Source of the DNA: a virus
Taxonomy: Duplodnaviria; Caudoviricetes
DNA: 64,000 nt
Reading direction: 5' to 3' (one strand)
Virus record (IMG/VR): IMGVR_UViG_3300033075_001214
Location: 6,052-70,051 of that record
Shown: positions 4,012-57,432 of the stretch, piece by piece
Numbering within the stretch: position 1 is the first letter of the stretch
Layout: each line of letters starts with the position of its first letter
The notes under the pieces: generated by a model
Databases searched by the model: none
What the model was told of the DNA's origin: nothing
The model's input: only the letters and a program-made list of their open reading frames with translations
Made by a program: the position numbers and the translations under genes

Positions 4012-4485
4012 ATGAAAGCAGAAATTCGAGATTATAAGTTAGATCCGCCATTTAACACAAACAGAGTTTATCAGGCGATTTTTGTCGATGGAGTAAAGAC
4101 CAATTTTTGGAGATTGAAACACCCCCAGCCAACAGACTTTTTAATTAACAAAAGTCTGCAGGACCTTGAGACCTTTTGCAGAATGATAAATGAAGGAGTA
4201 TTAAAACCCAGCAGCGAACTAGAGAGCTTTGATATTTGCAATTTTACTAAATGGAAACCCAAGAAAGTAAAAGTAATCCAGGCAGGAGAACAAGAGGAGC
4301 CCGATTATACGCAAAAACTATTTACCATATCCGGAAGCCCGCCAGACGTTGAAGAAGTAACCAAGAAAGCAGCTGAAAAACATTTTACCCAATATACAAA
4401 AATCGTAAACCGCGAAGCCGGGAAAATCCGGGACACCTGTTTAGTGATTTTATACGCCCGCGGAAGTTCATTTTATGCAATCTAA
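4012..4485 (+). CDS. Hypothetical early protein
   Basis: ORF track. Confidence 0.7.
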   Translation: MKAEIRDYKLDPPFNTNRVYQAIFVDGVKTNFWRLKHPQPTDFLINKSLQDLETFCRMINEGVLKPSSELESFDICNFTKWKPKKVKVIQAGEQEEPDYTQKLFTISGSPPDVEEVTKKAAEKHFTQYTKIVNREAGKIRDTCLVILYARGSSFYAI

Positions 4486-4513: not shown

Positions 4514-4930
4514 ATGAAAACAGTTTCAGATTTTAAGAAAGCCCTACAAGTAGGTACTAAGCTACACACAATATTTCATTGTGAAGCCAAGCGAGACGAG
4601 ACCGGCAACGTGTTAAGAGATCCGGACGGGTTACCAGTCTACACAGACAAAGACCTGGGAACCGCACCCGTGACAATTGTACAGACAACACAATTTGCCA
4701 TTGAGAGAACATGGAAAGACGGCACTAAAAAAGACAGCTGGTGTAAATACCCGAAGGCAAGCGAATGTGAAGTGAAAGAAAATAGTATAACTATTTTCGA
4801 AGACAACGACCGGAGAGGAAAAATAAAGGTTTTAACCTATACAATTGTAACCGCAACAGCCGCAGAGCGCACCAAATACGCAGGCATGACCACTGAAGAG
4901 AAAAGAACATACACAAATTCAGACCGATAA
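4514..4930 (+). CDS. Hypothetical early protein
   Basis: ORF track; AAAACGACCAA leader. Confidence 0.75.
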   Translation: MKTVSDFKKALQVGTKLHTIFHCEAKRDETGNVLRDPDGLPVYTDKDLGTAPVTIVQTTQFAIERTWKDGTKKDSWCKYPKASECEVKENSITIFEDNDRRGKIKVLTYTIVTATAAERTKYAGMTTEEKRTYTNSDR

Positions 4931-5971: not shown

Positions 5972-6163
5972 ATGGAAACGATAGTATTTCAAATCGAATT
6001 AAATGACGGACGAGTATTTAGGGTATTTTGTGCCAATGCAACACAGAAGAAAAAGGTTATTGAAAGTTACTACAAGATTAAAGAGAAGGTGAAGGAGATA
6101 CGAACGGTAACCAACGGAGTACACACGCACCAGCAGTATGAGAAACTATTAACAACATTTTAA
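5972..6163 (+). CDS. Hypothetical early protein
   Basis: ORF track; TTTTAAAACGACCAA leader. Confidence 0.7.
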   Translation: METIVFQIELNDGRVFRVFCANATQKKKVIESYYKIKEKVKEIRTVTNGVHTHQQYEKLLTTF

Positions 6164-8818: not shown

Positions 8819-8949
8819 AATACCTTATCCTTTTAATCCTACTGGCAAGCTGCTCACCTAAGGTAAGCAAGCACCAGAACGACTCGGTAGCTGATAGGTT
8901 GAGGCAAAGACACGCACCAGTAAAGACTCATAACCCAAGTATTCGATGA
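8815..8949 (+). CDS. Small lipoprotein, 44 aa
   Basis: MKYLILLILLASC lipobox; ATGA overlaps on both sides. Confidence 0.65.
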   Translation: MKYLILLILLASCSPKVSKHQNDSVADRLRQRHAPVKTHNPSIR

Positions 8950-9428
8950 TCAAATTTCTAAGCAGTAAAATTGTCCAGGCCTTCCCCCACAAGGACAAGA
9001 CACAAATTTTAAAATACATTCCGTTGATCTACGGAGTGGACAGCAATCTGAATAAGATTGAAGACCTGGTAGAGCGCAAGAAAATTGCGGCCGAGCAATG
9101 TGAGATAGAAGTCCCGGAGAATACCGAAGAACTTCGGAAAGTAATCATTGAATTCTTACGGCTCCAGCATCATAACAAGTTTGCTCTTTTAATCAGCAAG
9201 GAAGAACTATTGATAGAATGCCTGGATGTCCTAAGAGAACCCCTAGTCAATAGCAAGGATGATGACAAGCGGCTCAAGAACGTAAAGCTCAAGGGAGACG
9301 TGAATGAATTGTGTGACAAACTGGTTGCCGAAACAGAGCGCCTACGGATTGATATTTTCACCGAAGAGCATGCAGAAGAATCGAAGAAGGTCATTTCGAT
9401 CGAGGAACGGTTGAGAGCGAAAGGATGA
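8946..9428 (+). CDS. Helical protein, candidate terminase small subunit
   Basis: 160 aa, helical/coiled-coil; would directly precede terL if 9431-12181 were removed (positional inference only). Confidence 0.4.
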   Translation: MIKFLSSKIVQAFPHKDKTQILKYIPLIYGVDSNLNKIEDLVERKKIAAEQCEIEVPENTEELRKVIIEFLRLQHHNKFALLISKEELLIECLDVLREPLVNSKDDDKRLKNVKLKGDVNELCDKLVAETERLRIDIFTEEHAEESKKVISIEERLRAKG

Positions 9429-9430
9429 TT

Positions 9431-9458
9431 GTTATCCAACGTTTTAATGTTGGATAAC
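9431..9458. repeat. Terminal palindrome of array 1 (distal half of the split att site)
   Basis: GTTATCCAAC-8 nt-GTTGGATAAC, perfect 10-bp inverted repeat. Confidence 0.85.
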
Positions 9459-9904
9459 CGTTCTGCCTCTATGTGCAGTGCGTTTATTACAGATAAGTTG
9501 AACAATGAAATACTACAAGAAAATAAAAAATTTTAAACCAGCGCGTGGGCGATTCACCTAAATTAAAATGGAAAACATACAGCTATCACAAAACCTCACA
9601 GTTAATTACTTGACGACTATACAGCAAAGCCCCATGAAGGTGAGGTTCCATTGTACCTTTTTTGGAGAAGAGTTTATTGCGGATGTTTCAAAAAAGAATG
9701 TTGACAAAGATTGGGCAAGCATTGAGGGAGAAGGGCCAAGCGAATTATTTGACTCATTCACTTCACAAATGGAAGATGAGTATTGGGATAAGGTGAAGGA
9801 GTTGTTTAAAGAGTTCGAGAGCCAGGAGGTTTAAAATTTTTTATTTTCTCCGCACACATGAAGCTACAACGCACAGAACTAAGCATTGCACATAGAGGCT
9901 TGTT
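9456..9904. repeat. attC-like site 1 with a gene-containing loop
   Basis: AAC-cgttct-GCCTCTATGTGCAGTGC (9465-9481) pairs with GCATTGCACATAGAGGC (9883-9899)-tt-GTT; 16/17 bp. Confidence 0.8.
9568..9834 (+). CDS. Hypothetical protein inside the attC-1 loop
   Basis: ORF track, 88 aa. Confidence 0.75.
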   Translation: MENIQLSQNLTVNYLTTIQQSPMKVRFHCTFFGEEFIADVSKKNVDKDWASIEGEGPSELFDSFTSQMEDEYWDKVKELFKEFESQEV

Positions 9905-10113
9905 GTATGACGTTTGCCTCATGTGCGGCTGGGACAGGATTATGTAGGGCTGGACATTGCCATTGCATAATGGTTCTGGTGTATAGTGTCGTTGTGGCCC
10001 TACCCAAACTTAATGAGCCACACGGTTTTGCAACCTTTGGAAGTGCGTGGAAGTTGTGCGGGTTGCTTAACGGTGTGAGCGGTGAAACTGAAACTAAATA
10101 AATTGAAACTTAT

Positions 10114-10482
10114 ATGAATGAAACTCAAATTTTTCACGGAATACAACACATCGGTCTATTCATGGGATGGACTCATGATGAATTAAGGGTTTACTTAACT
10201 GTAAAATATCCTCAATCTAAAAATCTCGGCAAGTTGGCTTTCAATGAAAGTTGGGATTTACTTATGCCTGTGATTGATAAAATTGAAACCATTAAAACAA
10301 TTAACGATTCAGAGAAATTTAGATTTAACATTACTGGCGATGGTATAAGTATAACCCGTTTTGATGATGGGAGTGGTGTAATCTCACAAAGAGTTAATGA
10401 TTCAACTAATAGACTTCAATACGCCTTTGAGGTTGTTGTGGAATTTATAGAATGGTATAACCAACCTAATGTATACGCATAA
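10114..10482 (+). CDS. Hypothetical protein (SWD.LMPV..KIE...EFI.WYN family)
   Basis: ORF track; shared motif with the next gene. Confidence 0.8.
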   Translation: MNETQIFHGIQHIGLFMGWTHDELRVYLTVKYPQSKNLGKLAFNESWDLLMPVIDKIETIKTINDSEKFRFNITGDGISITRFDDGSGVISQRVNDSTNRLQYAFEVVVEFIEWYNQPNVYA

Positions 10483-10492
10483 CTAAAACTAA

Positions 10493-10840
10493 ATGATTAT
10501 GGAAGAGTCTAAAATCGAATTAAACAAACTTATTGCAACCTATCGGGGTAGTATTATCGTACAAAGATACCATGCTGAATGGCATCATTTAATGCCTGTA
10601 GTTCAAAAGATTTATAAGTTTTTAGAGGATAACTTTCTCGATGATTTTTGGACTACTAAAGGTATCTATTGGCAACATTCAAAGTTTAACAGTATGCCAA
10701 TTTACACCCCAATAGACATAGTTTACAAAAGGGTGATTGAATTTATAAAATGGCACAATAATACAATCCTTGTTAATAATAGTAAAAATGAATTGTACCA
10801 CGATTACCAAGCTGAAATAAAAAAAATAAATGACCTATGA
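10493..10840 (+). CDS. Hypothetical protein, paralog of 10114..10482
   Basis: EWHHLMPVVQKI...EFIKWHN. Confidence 0.8.
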   Translation: MIMEESKIELNKLIATYRGSIIVQRYHAEWHHLMPVVQKIYKFLEDNFLDDFWTTKGIYWQHSKFNSMPIYTPIDIVYKRVIEFIKWHNNTILVNNSKNELYHDYQAEIKKINDL

Positions 10841-11132
10841 TATGACACAAGAGCAAGTTAATGAAATGGAAAGTTGGTGCGATTGGGCATGCGCCAATAA
10901 AGAAAGAACTTCCAAAGTTTGGAAGGCTTTAAGACTTGGATACATACAGGGTATCTATCGAAGTAATCTTAAAAATGAAGAGGTTTTAAAACTACTGAAA
11001 TCAATGACCTTATCAATGGCAGCTCATCCTGACTGTTTTAAAAGACCGGACGGTGCGGCAAGTGAGTTTTACGACCTTGTCGAAATGGCTGAAAAAGTTC
11101 TCGAAGGTACTTTATATACTCGGCACGGATAA
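10830..11132 (+). CDS. Hypothetical protein
   Basis: ORF track; overlaps the previous gene. Confidence 0.7.
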   Translation: MTYDMTQEQVNEMESWCDWACANKERTSKVWKALRLGYIQGIYRSNLKNEEVLKLLKSMTLSMAAHPDCFKRPDGAASEFYDLVEMAEKVLEGTLYTRHG

Positions 11133-11211
11133 ACAAACTTAGGATGTGTGAGGGGTTTGCGCGGTGTGTTTATTGGTGCCGCCTGAGGGGCCACAATGCA
11201 CTATACACGGT

Positions 11212-11301
11212 GTTAGCGGTAGTGACAAAACGAAGCGTTGGCCAAAAGTAGGAAGAAGCTCTGCGCCTGCTTTTTTCAAGGGTTTTGGCATTACCGCTAA
11301 C
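11212..11301. repeat. Matched GTT...AAC cassette ends (non-coding interval)
   Basis: GTTAGCGGTAgTGaCAAAAC / GTTTTGgCAtTACCGCTAAC, 18/20 inverted repeat. Confidence 0.85.
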
Positions 11302-11328
11302 AAGTAATTTGTAATTTTCTATTGTAAC
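11299..11328. other. attI-like site 1
   Basis: AACAAGTAATTTGTAATTTTCTATTGTAAC, 22 bp upstream of the recombinase start; 26/30 identical to the reverse complement of 55820-55849. Confidence 0.7.
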
Positions 11329-11350
11329 CATTTGATAAACAATTAATGCC

Positions 11351-12181
11351 ATGAATATTTCTGCTCACATCGACTTCTTCAAACAGGAAATGAAACGTAG
11401 GGGATTAGGTAATTCAACCATTCAAAGCTATCCGTCCTACGTCAAAACATTCTTTGAACAATCAAAGGCAGATCACCCAAAGAATATTCATGAGCAAGAA
11501 ATCAGAGAGTTCTTAGGCAGATTCACGGAGCCCAATACACAACGGGCCTATCATTCGGCAATCAAAAAATTCTATGCTATCTGTTTGAATCAGGAACATA
11601 AGTTTCGATACATACCTTATTGCAAAGCCAGCAAAAAACTTCCTATTGTTCTATCCGTTGAAGAAATTCAACGGATGTTTGATGTTTGTGAAAATCTTAA
11701 ACATCGTGCTATCCTAGCATTGCTTTATTCATGCTCGTTACGCTCGTCAGAATTAATCAATCTAAAATGGACTGATATCGACCGATCAAGAATGATTATT
11801 AACATCCGACAGGCCAAAGGAAAGAAGGATAGGCAAGTTGGATTAAATCAAAAACTCATTGAAGTACTGGAGAACTACTATCGAAAGTACACTCCAAAGG
11901 AATATGTTTTCAATGGTCAGTTTTCTTTACAATATTCCAAAGAAAGCGTCCTGCAAGTTATCAAGCAGTTAGCCGATAAAGCACACATTGACAATAAACG
12001 TGTCTACACTCACCTCATGCGTCATTGCTCCGCTACACACATGCTGGAAAGCGGAGTTGACTTGAATCTCATTCAACGGATACTTGGTCACTCGTCTGTT
12101 AAAACGACCGCGATATACGCTCACATTTCGCATAACTTAATTTCACGTATTAACTCCCCGTTGACCGCCATCAACTTATAG
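11351..12181 (+). CDS. int: Tyrosine recombinase, IntI-related, short form
   Basis: R131, K156, H221-x-x-R224, H247, Y256; N-terminal SAM-like domain; KKLPIVLS.EE, KGKKDR and C-terminal SPL motifs. Confidence 0.92.
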   Translation: MNISAHIDFFKQEMKRRGLGNSTIQSYPSYVKTFFEQSKADHPKNIHEQEIREFLGRFTEPNTQRAYHSAIKKFYAICLNQEHKFRYIPYCKASKKLPIVLSVEEIQRMFDVCENLKHRAILALLYSCSLRSSELINLKWTDIDRSRMIINIRQAKGKKDRQVGLNQKLIEVLENYYRKYTPKEYVFNGQFSLQYSKESVLQVIKQLADKAHIDNKRVYTHLMRHCSATHMLESGVDLNLIQRILGHSSVKTTAIYAHISHNLISRINSPLTAINL

Positions 12182-12191
12182 TCTATCTTTG
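12161..12191 (+). promoter_or_regulatory. Bacteroidota-type promoter for terL
   Basis: TTG (12161-63), 20-nt spacer, TATCTTTG (12184-91). Confidence 0.6.
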
Positions 12192-12200
12192 CGTATCCCC

Positions 12201-55819: not shown

Positions 55820-55849
55820 GTTACAATGATAAATTACAAATAACTTGTT
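55820..55849. other. attI-like site 2
   Basis: GTTACAATGATAAATTACAAATAACTTGTT; 26/30 identical to the reverse complement of 11299-11328. Confidence 0.7.
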
Positions 55850-55894
55850 ATGCACAATTGGCGATTGCATACGAGGCAAAACTTCCTCGCGGAG

Positions 55895-56251
55895 CTACCC
55901 GCCATAAAGTTCATCTCCTTTTTTCCAAGTGTCGTACTTGCCATCCCGCACGTTTTGCCCAGCCGCACCATCGCCAACAGTCGGCTGCCGGACAGGTTTG
56001 TTTGTGGGTAGCCAACCTTCTTCACATGGTAGTCCACATTGATTACAACACCACACGGTTGTCTCCCCAACCCTGTCTTTGCATTGGCAGCCTTGCATAA
56101 CACCATGTTTATGCGAGTTTTGCTCAGTGTGCAGTTTCCAAAGTGAATCCAACGCGCCATGTATAACATAATCTCCTACTTGATGTGAGAATGTTATTTC
56201 TTTACGAAGTATCTCCGCGCACCGTTCTTTAAATTCTTTTTCTGTTATCAT
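55895..56251 (-). CDS. Cassette gene that starts inside an attC loop; Cys-rich C-terminal half
   Basis: 118 aa; codon 51 (Val) is the GTT/AAC core at 56101-56099; CQC...CCNQC..C. Confidence 0.7.
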   Translation of the reverse strand: MITEKEFKERCAEILRKEITFSHQVGDYVIHGALDSLWKLHTEQNSHKHGVMQGCQCKDRVGETTVWCCNQCGLPCEEGWLPTNKPVRQPTVGDGAAGQNVRDGKYDTWKKGDELYGG

Positions 56252-56299
56252 AGTGTGTAGTTTTTAAGTCGCAAAACCCTCATAAACATTTGATGCGTT
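56099..56299. repeat. attC-like site B (201 bp)
   Basis: AAC-acc-ATGTTTATGCGAGTTTTGC (56105-23) pairs with GCAAAACCCTCATAAACAT (56271-89)-ttgatgc-GTT; 17/19. Confidence 0.85.
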
Positions 56300-56309
56300 A
56301 TGTGCAAGG

Positions 56310-56531
56310 CTACAATCCGTTTTCAAATTGAAGTAAGTTTTTAAGACCGTATCTGTTCAACCAATCACTTGTAAAAAAGTCAATGTTATTTAAACCACAA
56401 AACTTAAATTCATCAACCGATTCTTTCGGAACTTTTTGATTTGTGTATGCTTCAAATTCAGTTACACAATCATTTAATTCCATTTTGTTATATTTTCTTA
56501 TTAGTTCTATTGCTAAAAAAAGTTCTTTCAT
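56310..56531 (-). CDS. Cassette gene, hypothetical, 73 aa
   Basis: Lies between matched ends GTTATGTGC (56297) and GCACATAAC (56571-79). Confidence 0.75.
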   Translation of the reverse strand: MKELFLAIELIRKYNKMELNDCVTEFEAYTNQKVPKESVDEFKFCGLNNIDFFTSDWLNRYGLKNLLQFENGL

Positions 56532-56576
56532 TTCGTTTTCAAATTAAATTTAGTGCTGATAATCCGCCCAGCACAT

Positions 56577-56700
56577 AACAGCGGTTTGTAGCAAAAAGGG
56601 CTGACGTGCTACATTCATCATTTGTGGTTCTAATCGGCAGTAGTGCAAGGTTGAAACAATATGATTCTAAATCCCTTTCAGCTACAAGCCGCAAAACGTT
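56577..56700. repeat. attC-like site A (124 bp, classical size)
   Basis: AAC-a-GCGGTTTGTAGC-aaaaaGGG ... CCCtttca-GCTACAAGCCGC-aaaac-GTT. Confidence 0.88.
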
Positions 56701-56726
56701 AGACAACATTGAAGCAGTTGTCTAAC
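56698..56726. repeat. Terminal palindrome of array 2
   Basis: GTTAGACAAC-9 nt-GTTGTCTAAC; overlaps the stop codon of 56722..57432. Confidence 0.85.
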
Positions 56727-57432
56727 AACGCTTCATCCAGATATTATCCTCCTTCATAGCATAGTACGTCACGCCTTCCACTTCGTACTCCCAATTCGAA
56801 TCGTGCTGGAAATACACATGATCTCCAGGACTCAGGTCTGGCCGTGAGCGAATATGGCGCACCGTTCCTTCAAGCATCTTATGAATTGGCTCCACAGATA
56901 GAATAAACCCACTGTCTACCGTTGCGTCTTCGTGTGGCTTTACTAACACCCAACCGGCCTGCATCCGTGTCCCTACGCAAATCAATGCGTCTGGCAGGGC
57001 TTTAAATACGGAATAGGACTCATGCTCTTCATGCAGGTTCTCAGGCTCCGTCACATTGGGATGAAAGTAAACGGTCTCGCCTACTTCCGCATCCACCAGT
57101 GCTCCGATATCCGCCAGCGATAAAAAGTCAATTTGCTCTTTGGTAGAAGGATAATATTGAATCGTAGCCGACTTTCGGCCCATTAAGGCCATAGTCTGCA
57201 GGGTATCATGCCCTACATATATCCGGTGGTTAGGCACTCCTGGATCGATCGGTTGATAATTCGTGTCACTGTAAGCCGTTGGTTTAGCTATAACTAAGCC
57301 TTTCCGGACCTTGCGCATATACCGGTCGCGCTCCTGATCAATGTACCAGGCATTATTCCGGCCTATCAGGTTGCCTTCCTTGAGGTCGTCAAATACGTTG
57401 TCAACACGGATTAGATAGTGGTCGTAGAGCAT
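56722..57432 (-). CDS. Protein with two tandem GroES-like domains
   Basis: GWVLVKP...SGFIL...EGTVRHI...PGDHVYF...YEVEGVTYYAMKEDNI; an N-terminal copy with VGETVYFH. Confidence 0.7.
   Translation of the reverse strand: MLYDHYLIRVDNVFDDLKEGNLIGRNNAWYIDQERDRYMRKVRKGLVIAKPTAYSDTNYQPIDPGVPNHRIYVGHDTLQTMALMGRKSATIQYYPSTKEQIDFLSLADIGALVDAEVGETVYFHPNVTEPENLHEEHESYSVFKALPDALICVGTRMQAGWVLVKPHEDATVDSGFILSVEPIHKMLEGTVRHIRSRPDLSPGDHVYFQHDSNWEYEVEGVTYYAMKEDNIWMKRC

Follow-up and report, generated by a model that had tools for sequence, protein, structure and literature searches.

Integron biology assumes a compact attC site of 57–141 bp, cargo that lies outside the attC hairpin and recognition of this hairpin by an IntI-specific domain; in classical integrons, the IntI insertion contacts extrahelical bases of attC. 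Among Xer systems, XerCD uses the attP site of CTX phage as a folded single-stranded hairpin, and pdif modules consist of genes bracketed by Xer sites. The PeSL (promoter early stem-loop) modules of T4-type phages are believed to be shuffled by homologous recombination between regulatory hairpins, and are not known to involve a dedicated recombinase or AAC/GTT junctions. Attention has also been drawn to phages that carry attC clusters (CALINs) and integron fragments, including a Polaribacter phage, with methyltransferases as common cargo (Qi et al. 2023, PMC9892861), and surveys with IntegronFinder have reported few integrons in Bacteroidetes (10.1101/2022.02.28.482270). Here we describe an array of small genes in a wastewater phage of Bacteroidota, lying beside the gene of an Xer-like tyrosine recombinase, in which whole genes are enclosed by long-range stems. 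The window, i.e. the whole stretch of 64,000 nt that was analyzed (positions 6,052 to 70,051 of IMG/VR record IMGVR_UViG_3300033075_001214), is part of a 70-kb virus record. With a probability of roughly two in three, the arms of these stems are L-box-like stems of integron-like recombination sites, in a cassette platform run by the phage's own Xer-like recombinase. A search of a limited literature collection returned no account of a phage integron of the Xer-like type or of attC loops that enclose genes; what is new here is the gene-in-loop variant, its recurrence in other lineages, the compensatory maintenance of its arms and the occurrence of one unit in two contexts.

Long-range stems in the array of the window

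Two stem types are distinguished throughout: H1, which starts with GTT, ends with AAC and is R-box-like, and H2, which is L-box-like, with AAC or AAT plus 5–7 nt before it and 1–3 nt plus GTT after it. The array occupies a 1.9-kb stretch with four small open reading frames (ORFs) between a gene of 160 aa (8946–9428, + strand in the ORF list), after which conserved phage genes give way to the array, and the recombinase gene (11351–12181); the genes of this region are on the + strand. An earlier note, made from the sequence alone, had proposed that arms pair here across one gene (~400 bp) and across three genes (~1190 bp), and both pairings were recovered. Site 1 consists of AAC (9456–9458), a 6-nt spacer, arms at 9465–9481 and 9883–9899, a 2-nt spacer and GTT (9902–9904), all on the + strand; its arms form 17 pairs, including one G.T, 401 nt apart, and its loop encloses ORF 9568–9834 (88 aa). 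Site 2, on the same strand, consists of AAT (9969–9971), a 7-nt spacer, arms at 9979–10000 and 11188–11208, a 3-nt spacer and GTT (11212–11214), with 20 pairs, one bulged T and one G.T; here the arms are 1187 nt apart and the loop holds three tightly packed ORFs, 10114–10482 (122 aa), 10493–10840 (115 aa) and 10830–11132 (100 aa). The single bulged base that had been claimed for both sites was therefore present only in site 2, site 1 having its G.T mismatch instead. A 4-nt spacer asymmetry was found, as claimed, in all four H2 hairpins of the window: 6/2 and 7/3 in this array (9431–11301), and 7/3 and 5/1 in a second array (55820–56727), where the longer side again faces away from attI.

Chance origin of the long-range stems is excluded: region 9400–11350 holds three, compared with a mean of 0.16 in 200 dinucleotide shuffles, none of which reached three. 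Both long-range stems appeared in predicted folds of the single strand, a check that the earlier note had proposed, and for 9420–9990 the + strand folded better by 10 kcal/mol (−78.3 versus −68.4 kcal/mol for the − strand).

Read along the + strand, the array begins at its far end with a terminal 28-nt palindrome (9431–9458), a short H1 hairpin built of GTT...AAC, 10 bp, G9441.T9448 and a further 2 bp. Cassette unit 2 (9459–9970) follows, composed of a 6-nt spacer, the giant H2 of site 1, a 2-nt spacer and a hybrid H1 (9902–9971) whose two ends are unpaired. Cassette unit 1 (9971–11300) comprises T9971, a 7-nt spacer, the giant H2 of site 2, a 3-nt spacer and a short, R-box-like H1 hairpin (11212–11301; arms 11212–11231 and 11282–11301, 18 pairs, G.T at offset 10, 50-nt loop). 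The 3′ AAC of this last hairpin is the junction between the array and an attI-like region (11302–11350) that extends to the start of the recombinase gene. All four pairing outer stems of the array carry a G.T. The three GTT...AAC intervals of 28, 70 and 90 nt (9431–9458, 9902–9971 and 11212–11301) had been described as empty, and indeed hold no credible gene, but they are not spacers: the 28- and 90-nt intervals are themselves hairpins, and the 70-nt interval is the hybrid with non-pairing ends. The 5′ arm of this hybrid resembles an intact H1 that starts near position 2030 of a related locus (L070) and its 3′ arm comes from a different H1, which is why it does not fold; a deletion between two H1 loops appears to have left it as a scar. 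Nested in site 1 is a perfect 22-nt AT-rich inverted repeat (9518–9539 and 9828–9849, + strand) around ORF 9568–9834.

The recombinase (276 aa; + strand; Pfam Phage_integrase) scored below every NCBIfam cutoff. XerA was the best-scoring NCBIfam model, and TIGR02249 reached 167.5 bits, in two stretches, against a cutoff of 265; the best PDB matches were archaeal XerA structures (4a8e and 5hxy). It has 21 residues where VchIntIA (2a3v) has 63, and the IntI-specific insertion is thus absent; it therefore differs from the integrases of integrons, which belong to the IntI clade and carry this insertion, the additional domain used by IntegronFinder. The candidate catalytic residues, by our assignment R131, K156, H221, R224, H247 and Y256, are invariant in five relatives. 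A large terminase subunit gene lies downstream of the recombinase gene. Pfam and PHROGs gave zero matches for the four cargo ORFs and the 160-aa upstream gene, as did blastn of 8900–12200 against GenBank phages.

The site family in relatives

Five close relatives of the recombinase were compared first, and then 134 loci from viral and metagenome collections. DNA homology between the window and loci L001, L002 and L003 begins at 11296–11298, within the AAC ending the 90-nt hairpin; the attI-like region is kept and everything upstream is unrelated. Because homology starts at ...CTAAC|, 50 nt before an Xer-like recombinase, 9431–11301 is interpreted as an integron-like cassette array. In the 134-locus set every array ends with ...YAAC about 50 nt before the recombinase start, i.e. 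there is a fixed insertion point (attI) beside the integrase gene, as in integrons. Many metagenome contigs (e.g. L019, L029, L059, L063 and L069) begin 50–200 nt upstream of the recombinase gene, which fits assemblies breaking at a cassette array that varies within the population.

The same junction was found in cultured phages. Polaribacter phages Freya_1 to Freya_10 (genome records of 44.0–48.9 kb) encode a recombinase 31% identical to that of the window. Freya_1, 5, 8 and 10 (MT732463, MT732467, MT732470 and MT732472; L206–L211), otherwise near-identical isolates, differ in length by 0 to 4.9 kb, owing to small ORFs (up to 12) placed precisely at ...AAC|, 49 nt upstream of the integrase gene and ahead of the conserved sequence that precedes it. 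In the paper on these phages, the integrase is treated solely as an indication that they may be temperate. An HNH endonuclease gene is next after the integrase gene in the Freya phages, which represent a ready experimental system for the whole family.

Stems were then scanned in 90 non-redundant arrays upstream of the recombinase, with downstream sequence as control. Stem density was three times higher upstream (1.57/kb) than downstream (0.50/kb), and the excess consisted of the H1 and H2 classes: 139 H1 and 77 H2 stems upstream, compared with 12 and 7 (19 in all) in the downstream controls. H1 and H2 alternate along the strand. The spacer excess of H2 was 3 nt in 31 and 4 nt in 26 cases (57 of 77), and the AAC-N(n+3/4)-arm...arm-N(n)-GTT site recurs in relatives, mostly with short loops. 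A G in the 5′ arm stood opposite a T in the 3′ arm in 119 of 139 H1 stems, at offset 10–12, and in 66 of 77 H2 stems, at offset 8–15; the reverse T.G was rare, with 9 instances in H1 and 6 in H2. A G.T on the coding strand is an A.C on the other. Long, gene-holding loops were found in 110 of the 139 H1 stems, whereas 60 of the 77 H2 loops were no longer than 150 nt. H1 corresponds to an extended R″/R′ pairing of one cassette and H2 to the L″/L′ stem of attC, and the usual layout, with the gene in H1 and a short H2, matches the arrangement known from integrons, in which a short attC comes after the gene. The attC layout and the AAC/GTT cores are present in the family, most of whose H2 sites are short; sites 1 and 2, which span ~450 and ~1250 nt with cargo inside, depart from both the size of attC and the position of its cargo.

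The second array of the window (55820–56727, − strand) has the usual layout: genes lie in H1 loops, the H2 loops measure ~149 and 90 nt, and a terminal palindrome is found at 56700–56727. It is inverted, with an inverted copy of the attI-like region (55820–55849) and no adjoining recombinase. The cargo ORFs of both arrays all point towards attI. One minus-strand ORF (55895–56251) begins in an H2 loop, crosses the H2 arm and the AAC core and enters the H1 loop.

Loops longer than 150 nt were found in 17 of the 77 H2 stems, and about one H2 in five is gene-holding. When a stringent filter was applied (stems of 16 bp or more, the G.T at its place and an asymmetry of 2–6), eight high-confidence giant H2 stems remained in six loci, whose recombinases are 49–96% identical to that of the window; no downstream stem passed. 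Stems with long loops were longer than those with short loops (median 21.5 versus 18 bp, p = 0.006). In one locus (L034) the order is as in the window, giant H2, short H1 and attI, and in another (L017) cargo lies in one H1 and in the following H2. L001, L048 and L034 carry homologous methyltransferase-like cargo, held by an H1 loop in the first two and by an H2 loop in the third. Since the same frame occurs with short loops in relatives and in the second array, the giant sites of the window are the same site with cargo in its loop; they are a minority variant of a two-slot site and not a separate element.

The junction between variable and conserved sequence falls at the 3′ AAC of H1 both in usual arrays and in the window, where H1, usually the gene-closing stem, is a hairpin of 28–90 nt. 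With the crossover at the AAC of a short GTT...AAC hairpin and not of a gene-closing stem, the genes come to lie on the "wrong" side of the site. Relabelling H1 and H2 does not remove this difference, because the spacer after the gene-closing stem is 6–7 nt in the usual layout and 2–3 nt here. The inside-out cassette architecture that the earlier note had inferred is supported by this junction, by the short-loop versions in relatives and by arms kept as pairs.

Arrays of H1 and H2 were also found in bacteria, downstream of insertion-less recombinases with an extra 70–200 N-terminal residues (L169, L155 and L186). They lie at L169 6619–10763 (Pedobacter glucosidilyticus DSM 23534), L155 7364–12276 and L186 1791–4563, and the carriers are chromosomes of P. 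glucosidilyticus and genome assemblies of a Sediminibacterium and a Chitinophagaceae bacterium. The mismatch reads A.C on the recombinase strand in these loci, and hence the array has the opposite orientation to that in the phages.

Two further features of the cassettes were observed. A third class of inverted repeat, AT-rich, usually perfect and 15–26 nt long, lies 24–40 nt inside the outer arms on both sides and hugs the ORF; there are 24 cases in relatives' cassettes, in both H1 and H2 cargo slots (e.g. L002 4651–4989, L070 4940–5380 and L013 5069–5903). This inner repeat may lengthen the DNA hairpin, or it may act in RNA as a stem for processing or insulation. Short H1 hairpins of relatives (L002 5050–5155 and 5494–5583; L003 5850–5948) have a common internal design, composed of a 9-bp base, a 3×3 mismatch (TGG opposite CTT), a T/A run and a GC-rich loop, which contains the G-rich box that flanks ORFs elsewhere. 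The design hints that these hairpins may be emptied cargo slots; when the short H1 of the window was compared with a gene-holding H1 of the same base (L075), no recognizable trace of an emptied slot was seen.

Apparent maintenance and movement, and competing explanations

Compensation was assessed between orthologous frames, window with L070 and L070 with L130. The frame of site 1 has an ortholog at L070 4372–4817 (arms 4372–4388 and 4801–4817), which has its arms and flanks in common with site 1 and encloses another ORF. Between the two sets of arms three positions have changed, each with compensation, and the G.T is kept, in line with the expectation that arms should be conserved as pairs in homologs; L070 and L130 show two compensated differences across about 520 nt. 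An all-against-all count of "compensatory" changes between stems was discarded as circular, because the non-orthologous stems had been selected for pairing. The compensatory changes, the longer stems of long-loop sites and the presence of unit 1 in a second context suggest that giant sites are maintained.

This second context was found by aligning Logan contigs of four wastewater runs to 8900–12200. These are assembled contigs and not reads, and uncovered parts, depths and an absence of inversions carry no weight in them. Run X1 is from a different study than X19 and X20, the likely source runs of the window. Contigs from other samples cover the 160-aa gene to about 9400–9415 and diverge beyond; an X1 contig with a loose end at 9415 holds a variant of the terminal palindrome at the same place. 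The cargo ORFs of 10114–11132 occur in contigs of runs X1, X2 and X5. A 1703-nt X1 contig is identical to 10068–11300 and continues from 11301 into another 7-nt spacer and an H2-type arm, not attI, and a second X1 contig has a different H1 3′ arm up to 9967, the same as an arm in L002. As the X1 contigs differ on both sides, unit 9971–11300 occurs with other neighbors, and unit 1 is apparently mobile, as judged by sequence comparison. The right-side divergence falls between A11300 and 11301, consistent with a cut at AA|C as on the attC bottom strand; such a cut would account for the AAT variants. By the same kind of comparison, unit 1 in X1 and the cassette-wise differences among Freya phages point to cassettes that move between arrays and are joined at the core triplet, as those of integrons are.

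On the + strand, every cassette reads as a first base C or T, a 6–7-nt spacer, H2, a 2–3-nt spacer and H1 (GTT...AA). In the mechanism we propose, once the cassette is circular, H1 and H2 would stack into a two-stem rod with an asymmetric central bulge (6/2) and a loop at each end, each stem having its G.T mismatch about 11–13 bp from the center. Cargo can be carried in either loop, that of H1 in most cassettes of the family and that of H2 in the two of the window. The recombinase would act on the + strand in its folded form and cut it at AA|C, in the way that the bottom strand is cut by IntI; the choice of strand would probably depend on the bulge and on the G.T, which reads A.C on the opposite strand. 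Giant sites would need more than 0.4–1.2 kb of single-stranded DNA, as might be exposed in phage replication or recombination intermediates, and we infer that a single strand of more than 1 kb would fold. It is possible, though rather doubtful, that the site is a pseudo-symmetric rod in which both loops are legitimate cargo slots, cassettes with genes in the L stem-loop are fully active and the Xer-like enzyme reads hairpins through the fixed G.T. Were this so, the recombinase would work on folded single strands of more than 1 kb, and the ORF-for-ORF swaps within frames would show how cassettes are built, an open question for integrons.

Several observations weigh against sites 1 and 2 being integron-like recombination sites run by the phage's recombinase. 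This enzyme is without the IntI insertion, and the evidence for movement is comparative; excision or circle junctions were looked for in the assembled contigs and none was seen. A long attC loop lowers recombination when the site extrudes from double-stranded DNA, according to PMC5027507 (citing Loot 2010), so a giant site would depend on replication or recombination intermediates. Decay is visible, both in the unpaired hybrid H1 at 9902–9971 and in a four-gene unit with unmatched H2 arms (L002 3437–4493). Cargo orientation is coupled to strand polarity; of the longest loop ORFs, 61 lie on the + and 22 on the − strand, a count that, given this coupling, cannot separate a DNA role from an RNA role. 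Finally, near-identical frames hold unrelated ORFs (L055 1–700, L070 4860–5520 and L130 425–1010), and ORFs are swapped in the window's own frames at 9558, 10108 and 11118, in contigs from three studies. The conserved parts of such frames are the outer arms, two interior segments of ~30 nt, the AT-rich perfect inner repeat and G-rich boxes (GCGYG..TGG type) that flank the ORF on both sides in direct orientation, and replacement spans about start codon to stop codon. Hence a second process also shapes the arrays; it is perhaps homologous recombination, which could have put genes in H2 loops.

Carried further, this last point would make the giant H2 pairs by-products: genes would have been placed into the loop of a short site by homologous recombination or ORF swapping, and mobility, if any, would proceed via the short H1 alone, independently of long-range H2 pairing. 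The swapped ORFs speak for such an origin, as do the existence of hybrid H1 and H2 elements and the finding that L002 and L070 have common H2 arms around a different inner module. We nevertheless consider it unlikely, since compensatory changes keep arms paired across 400–520 nt, giant stems are longer than short ones and not more decayed, the G.T and the spacer asymmetry are kept in giant sites, and unit 1 is found in its second context with exact junctions. An action of the stems in RNA is less probable again. In that case the array would be one early transcript in which 5′/3′ pairing with G.U directs processing (e.g. by RNase III), or insulates or stabilizes cassette mRNA; a coding-strand G.T would indeed become a stable G.U, perfect inner repeats of 15–26 bp do hug the ORFs, and the strand bias of loop ORFs fits as well. 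However, it is at the GTT/AAC of the H1 stem type that gene content changes from array to array, the majority of H2 sites are without a gene, like arrays in bacteria adjoin recombinases of this type, and Rfam at a permissive threshold gave no family match, only a chance snoRNA match. An RNA role could coexist with a DNA role, most plausibly for the inner repeats.

Inverted repeats of 17–22 bp that flank genes beside a tyrosine recombinase also bring to mind invertons or shufflons, the enzyme flipping the enclosed genes. That explanation has very little to commend it here: every arm pair differs in sequence, arrays vary in content and not in orientation, and polarity is nearly fixed, with 206 G.T versus 11 A.C over H1 and H2, whereas inversion within the arms would scramble it. 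Orientation variants and strand-changing joints were likewise not seen in the assembled contigs, where their absence carries no weight. Integron-like recombination sites with H2 arms remain the preferred reading. The conserved frames with unrelated ORFs provide a concrete handle on cassette origin.

Comparison with known systems

The array resembles PeSL modules in its small early phage genes, its conserved structured intergenic modules and its ORFs shuffled between conserved flanks, and differs from them in having a dedicated recombinase and AAC/GTT junctions. By analogy, PeSL modules may be the better model for the inner repeats and the ORF-only swaps. With Xer/dif systems it shares a simple Xer-type enzyme, and CTX provides the precedent for a folded single-stranded hairpin as substrate. 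Dimer resolution relies on a single dif site of ~28 bp with two 11-bp arms and no cassettes; the phage, in contrast, has many differing sites that flank variable cargo. These lack a 28-bp dif-like conserved core, vary in sequence while conserved in structure, and are grouped in arrays, for which a dedicated attI-like site adjoins the recombinase gene. The 28-nt palindrome at 9431–9458 is one member of the H1 class and varies between samples.

Phage CALINs (PMC9892861) are similar in that attC-type sites and cassettes are found in phage genomes. Those sites are classical short attC found by IntegronFinder and tested with IntI1, however, and the study describes neither an Xer-like recombinase of the phage's own, nor an attI junction, nor a site with genes in its loop.

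The most extensive likeness is to classical integrons (class 1 and the IntIA/VCR system of V. cholerae). In both, small cassettes without promoters form an array that adjoins a fixed insertion site next to a recombinase gene, and the sites take the form of imperfect hairpins that have AAC/GTT cores, leave a central spacer unpaired and pair irrespective of sequence; the junction is consistent with an AA|C cut, and one strand folds better. The phage system differs in its recombinase without the IntI insertion and in its strand marks, which are a fixed G.T and a one-sided spacer excess of 3–4 nt instead of extrahelical bases. Its R′/R″ complementarity extends to 15–20 bp, and cargo is transcribed towards attI, whereas cassette genes of integrons, whose promoter lies at the attI/intI end, face away from it. 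In the window, moreover, cargo lies between L″ and L′, giving sites of ~450 and ~1250 nt compared with the 57–141 bp of attC (PMC5027507).

If the giant sites are active, they would show how long, at the least, the single-stranded DNA available in phage infection must be, and site recognition would need only two stem bases and a central bulge. Standard integron finders, with their attC length cap and IntI domain, would then overlook a large reservoir of mobile genes carried by Bacteroidota and by their phages. All three assumptions of integron biology, a compact attC, cargo outside the hairpin and an IntI-specific domain to read it, are relaxed in this system, and yet its arrays vary cassette by cassette at AAC, including in cultured isolates.

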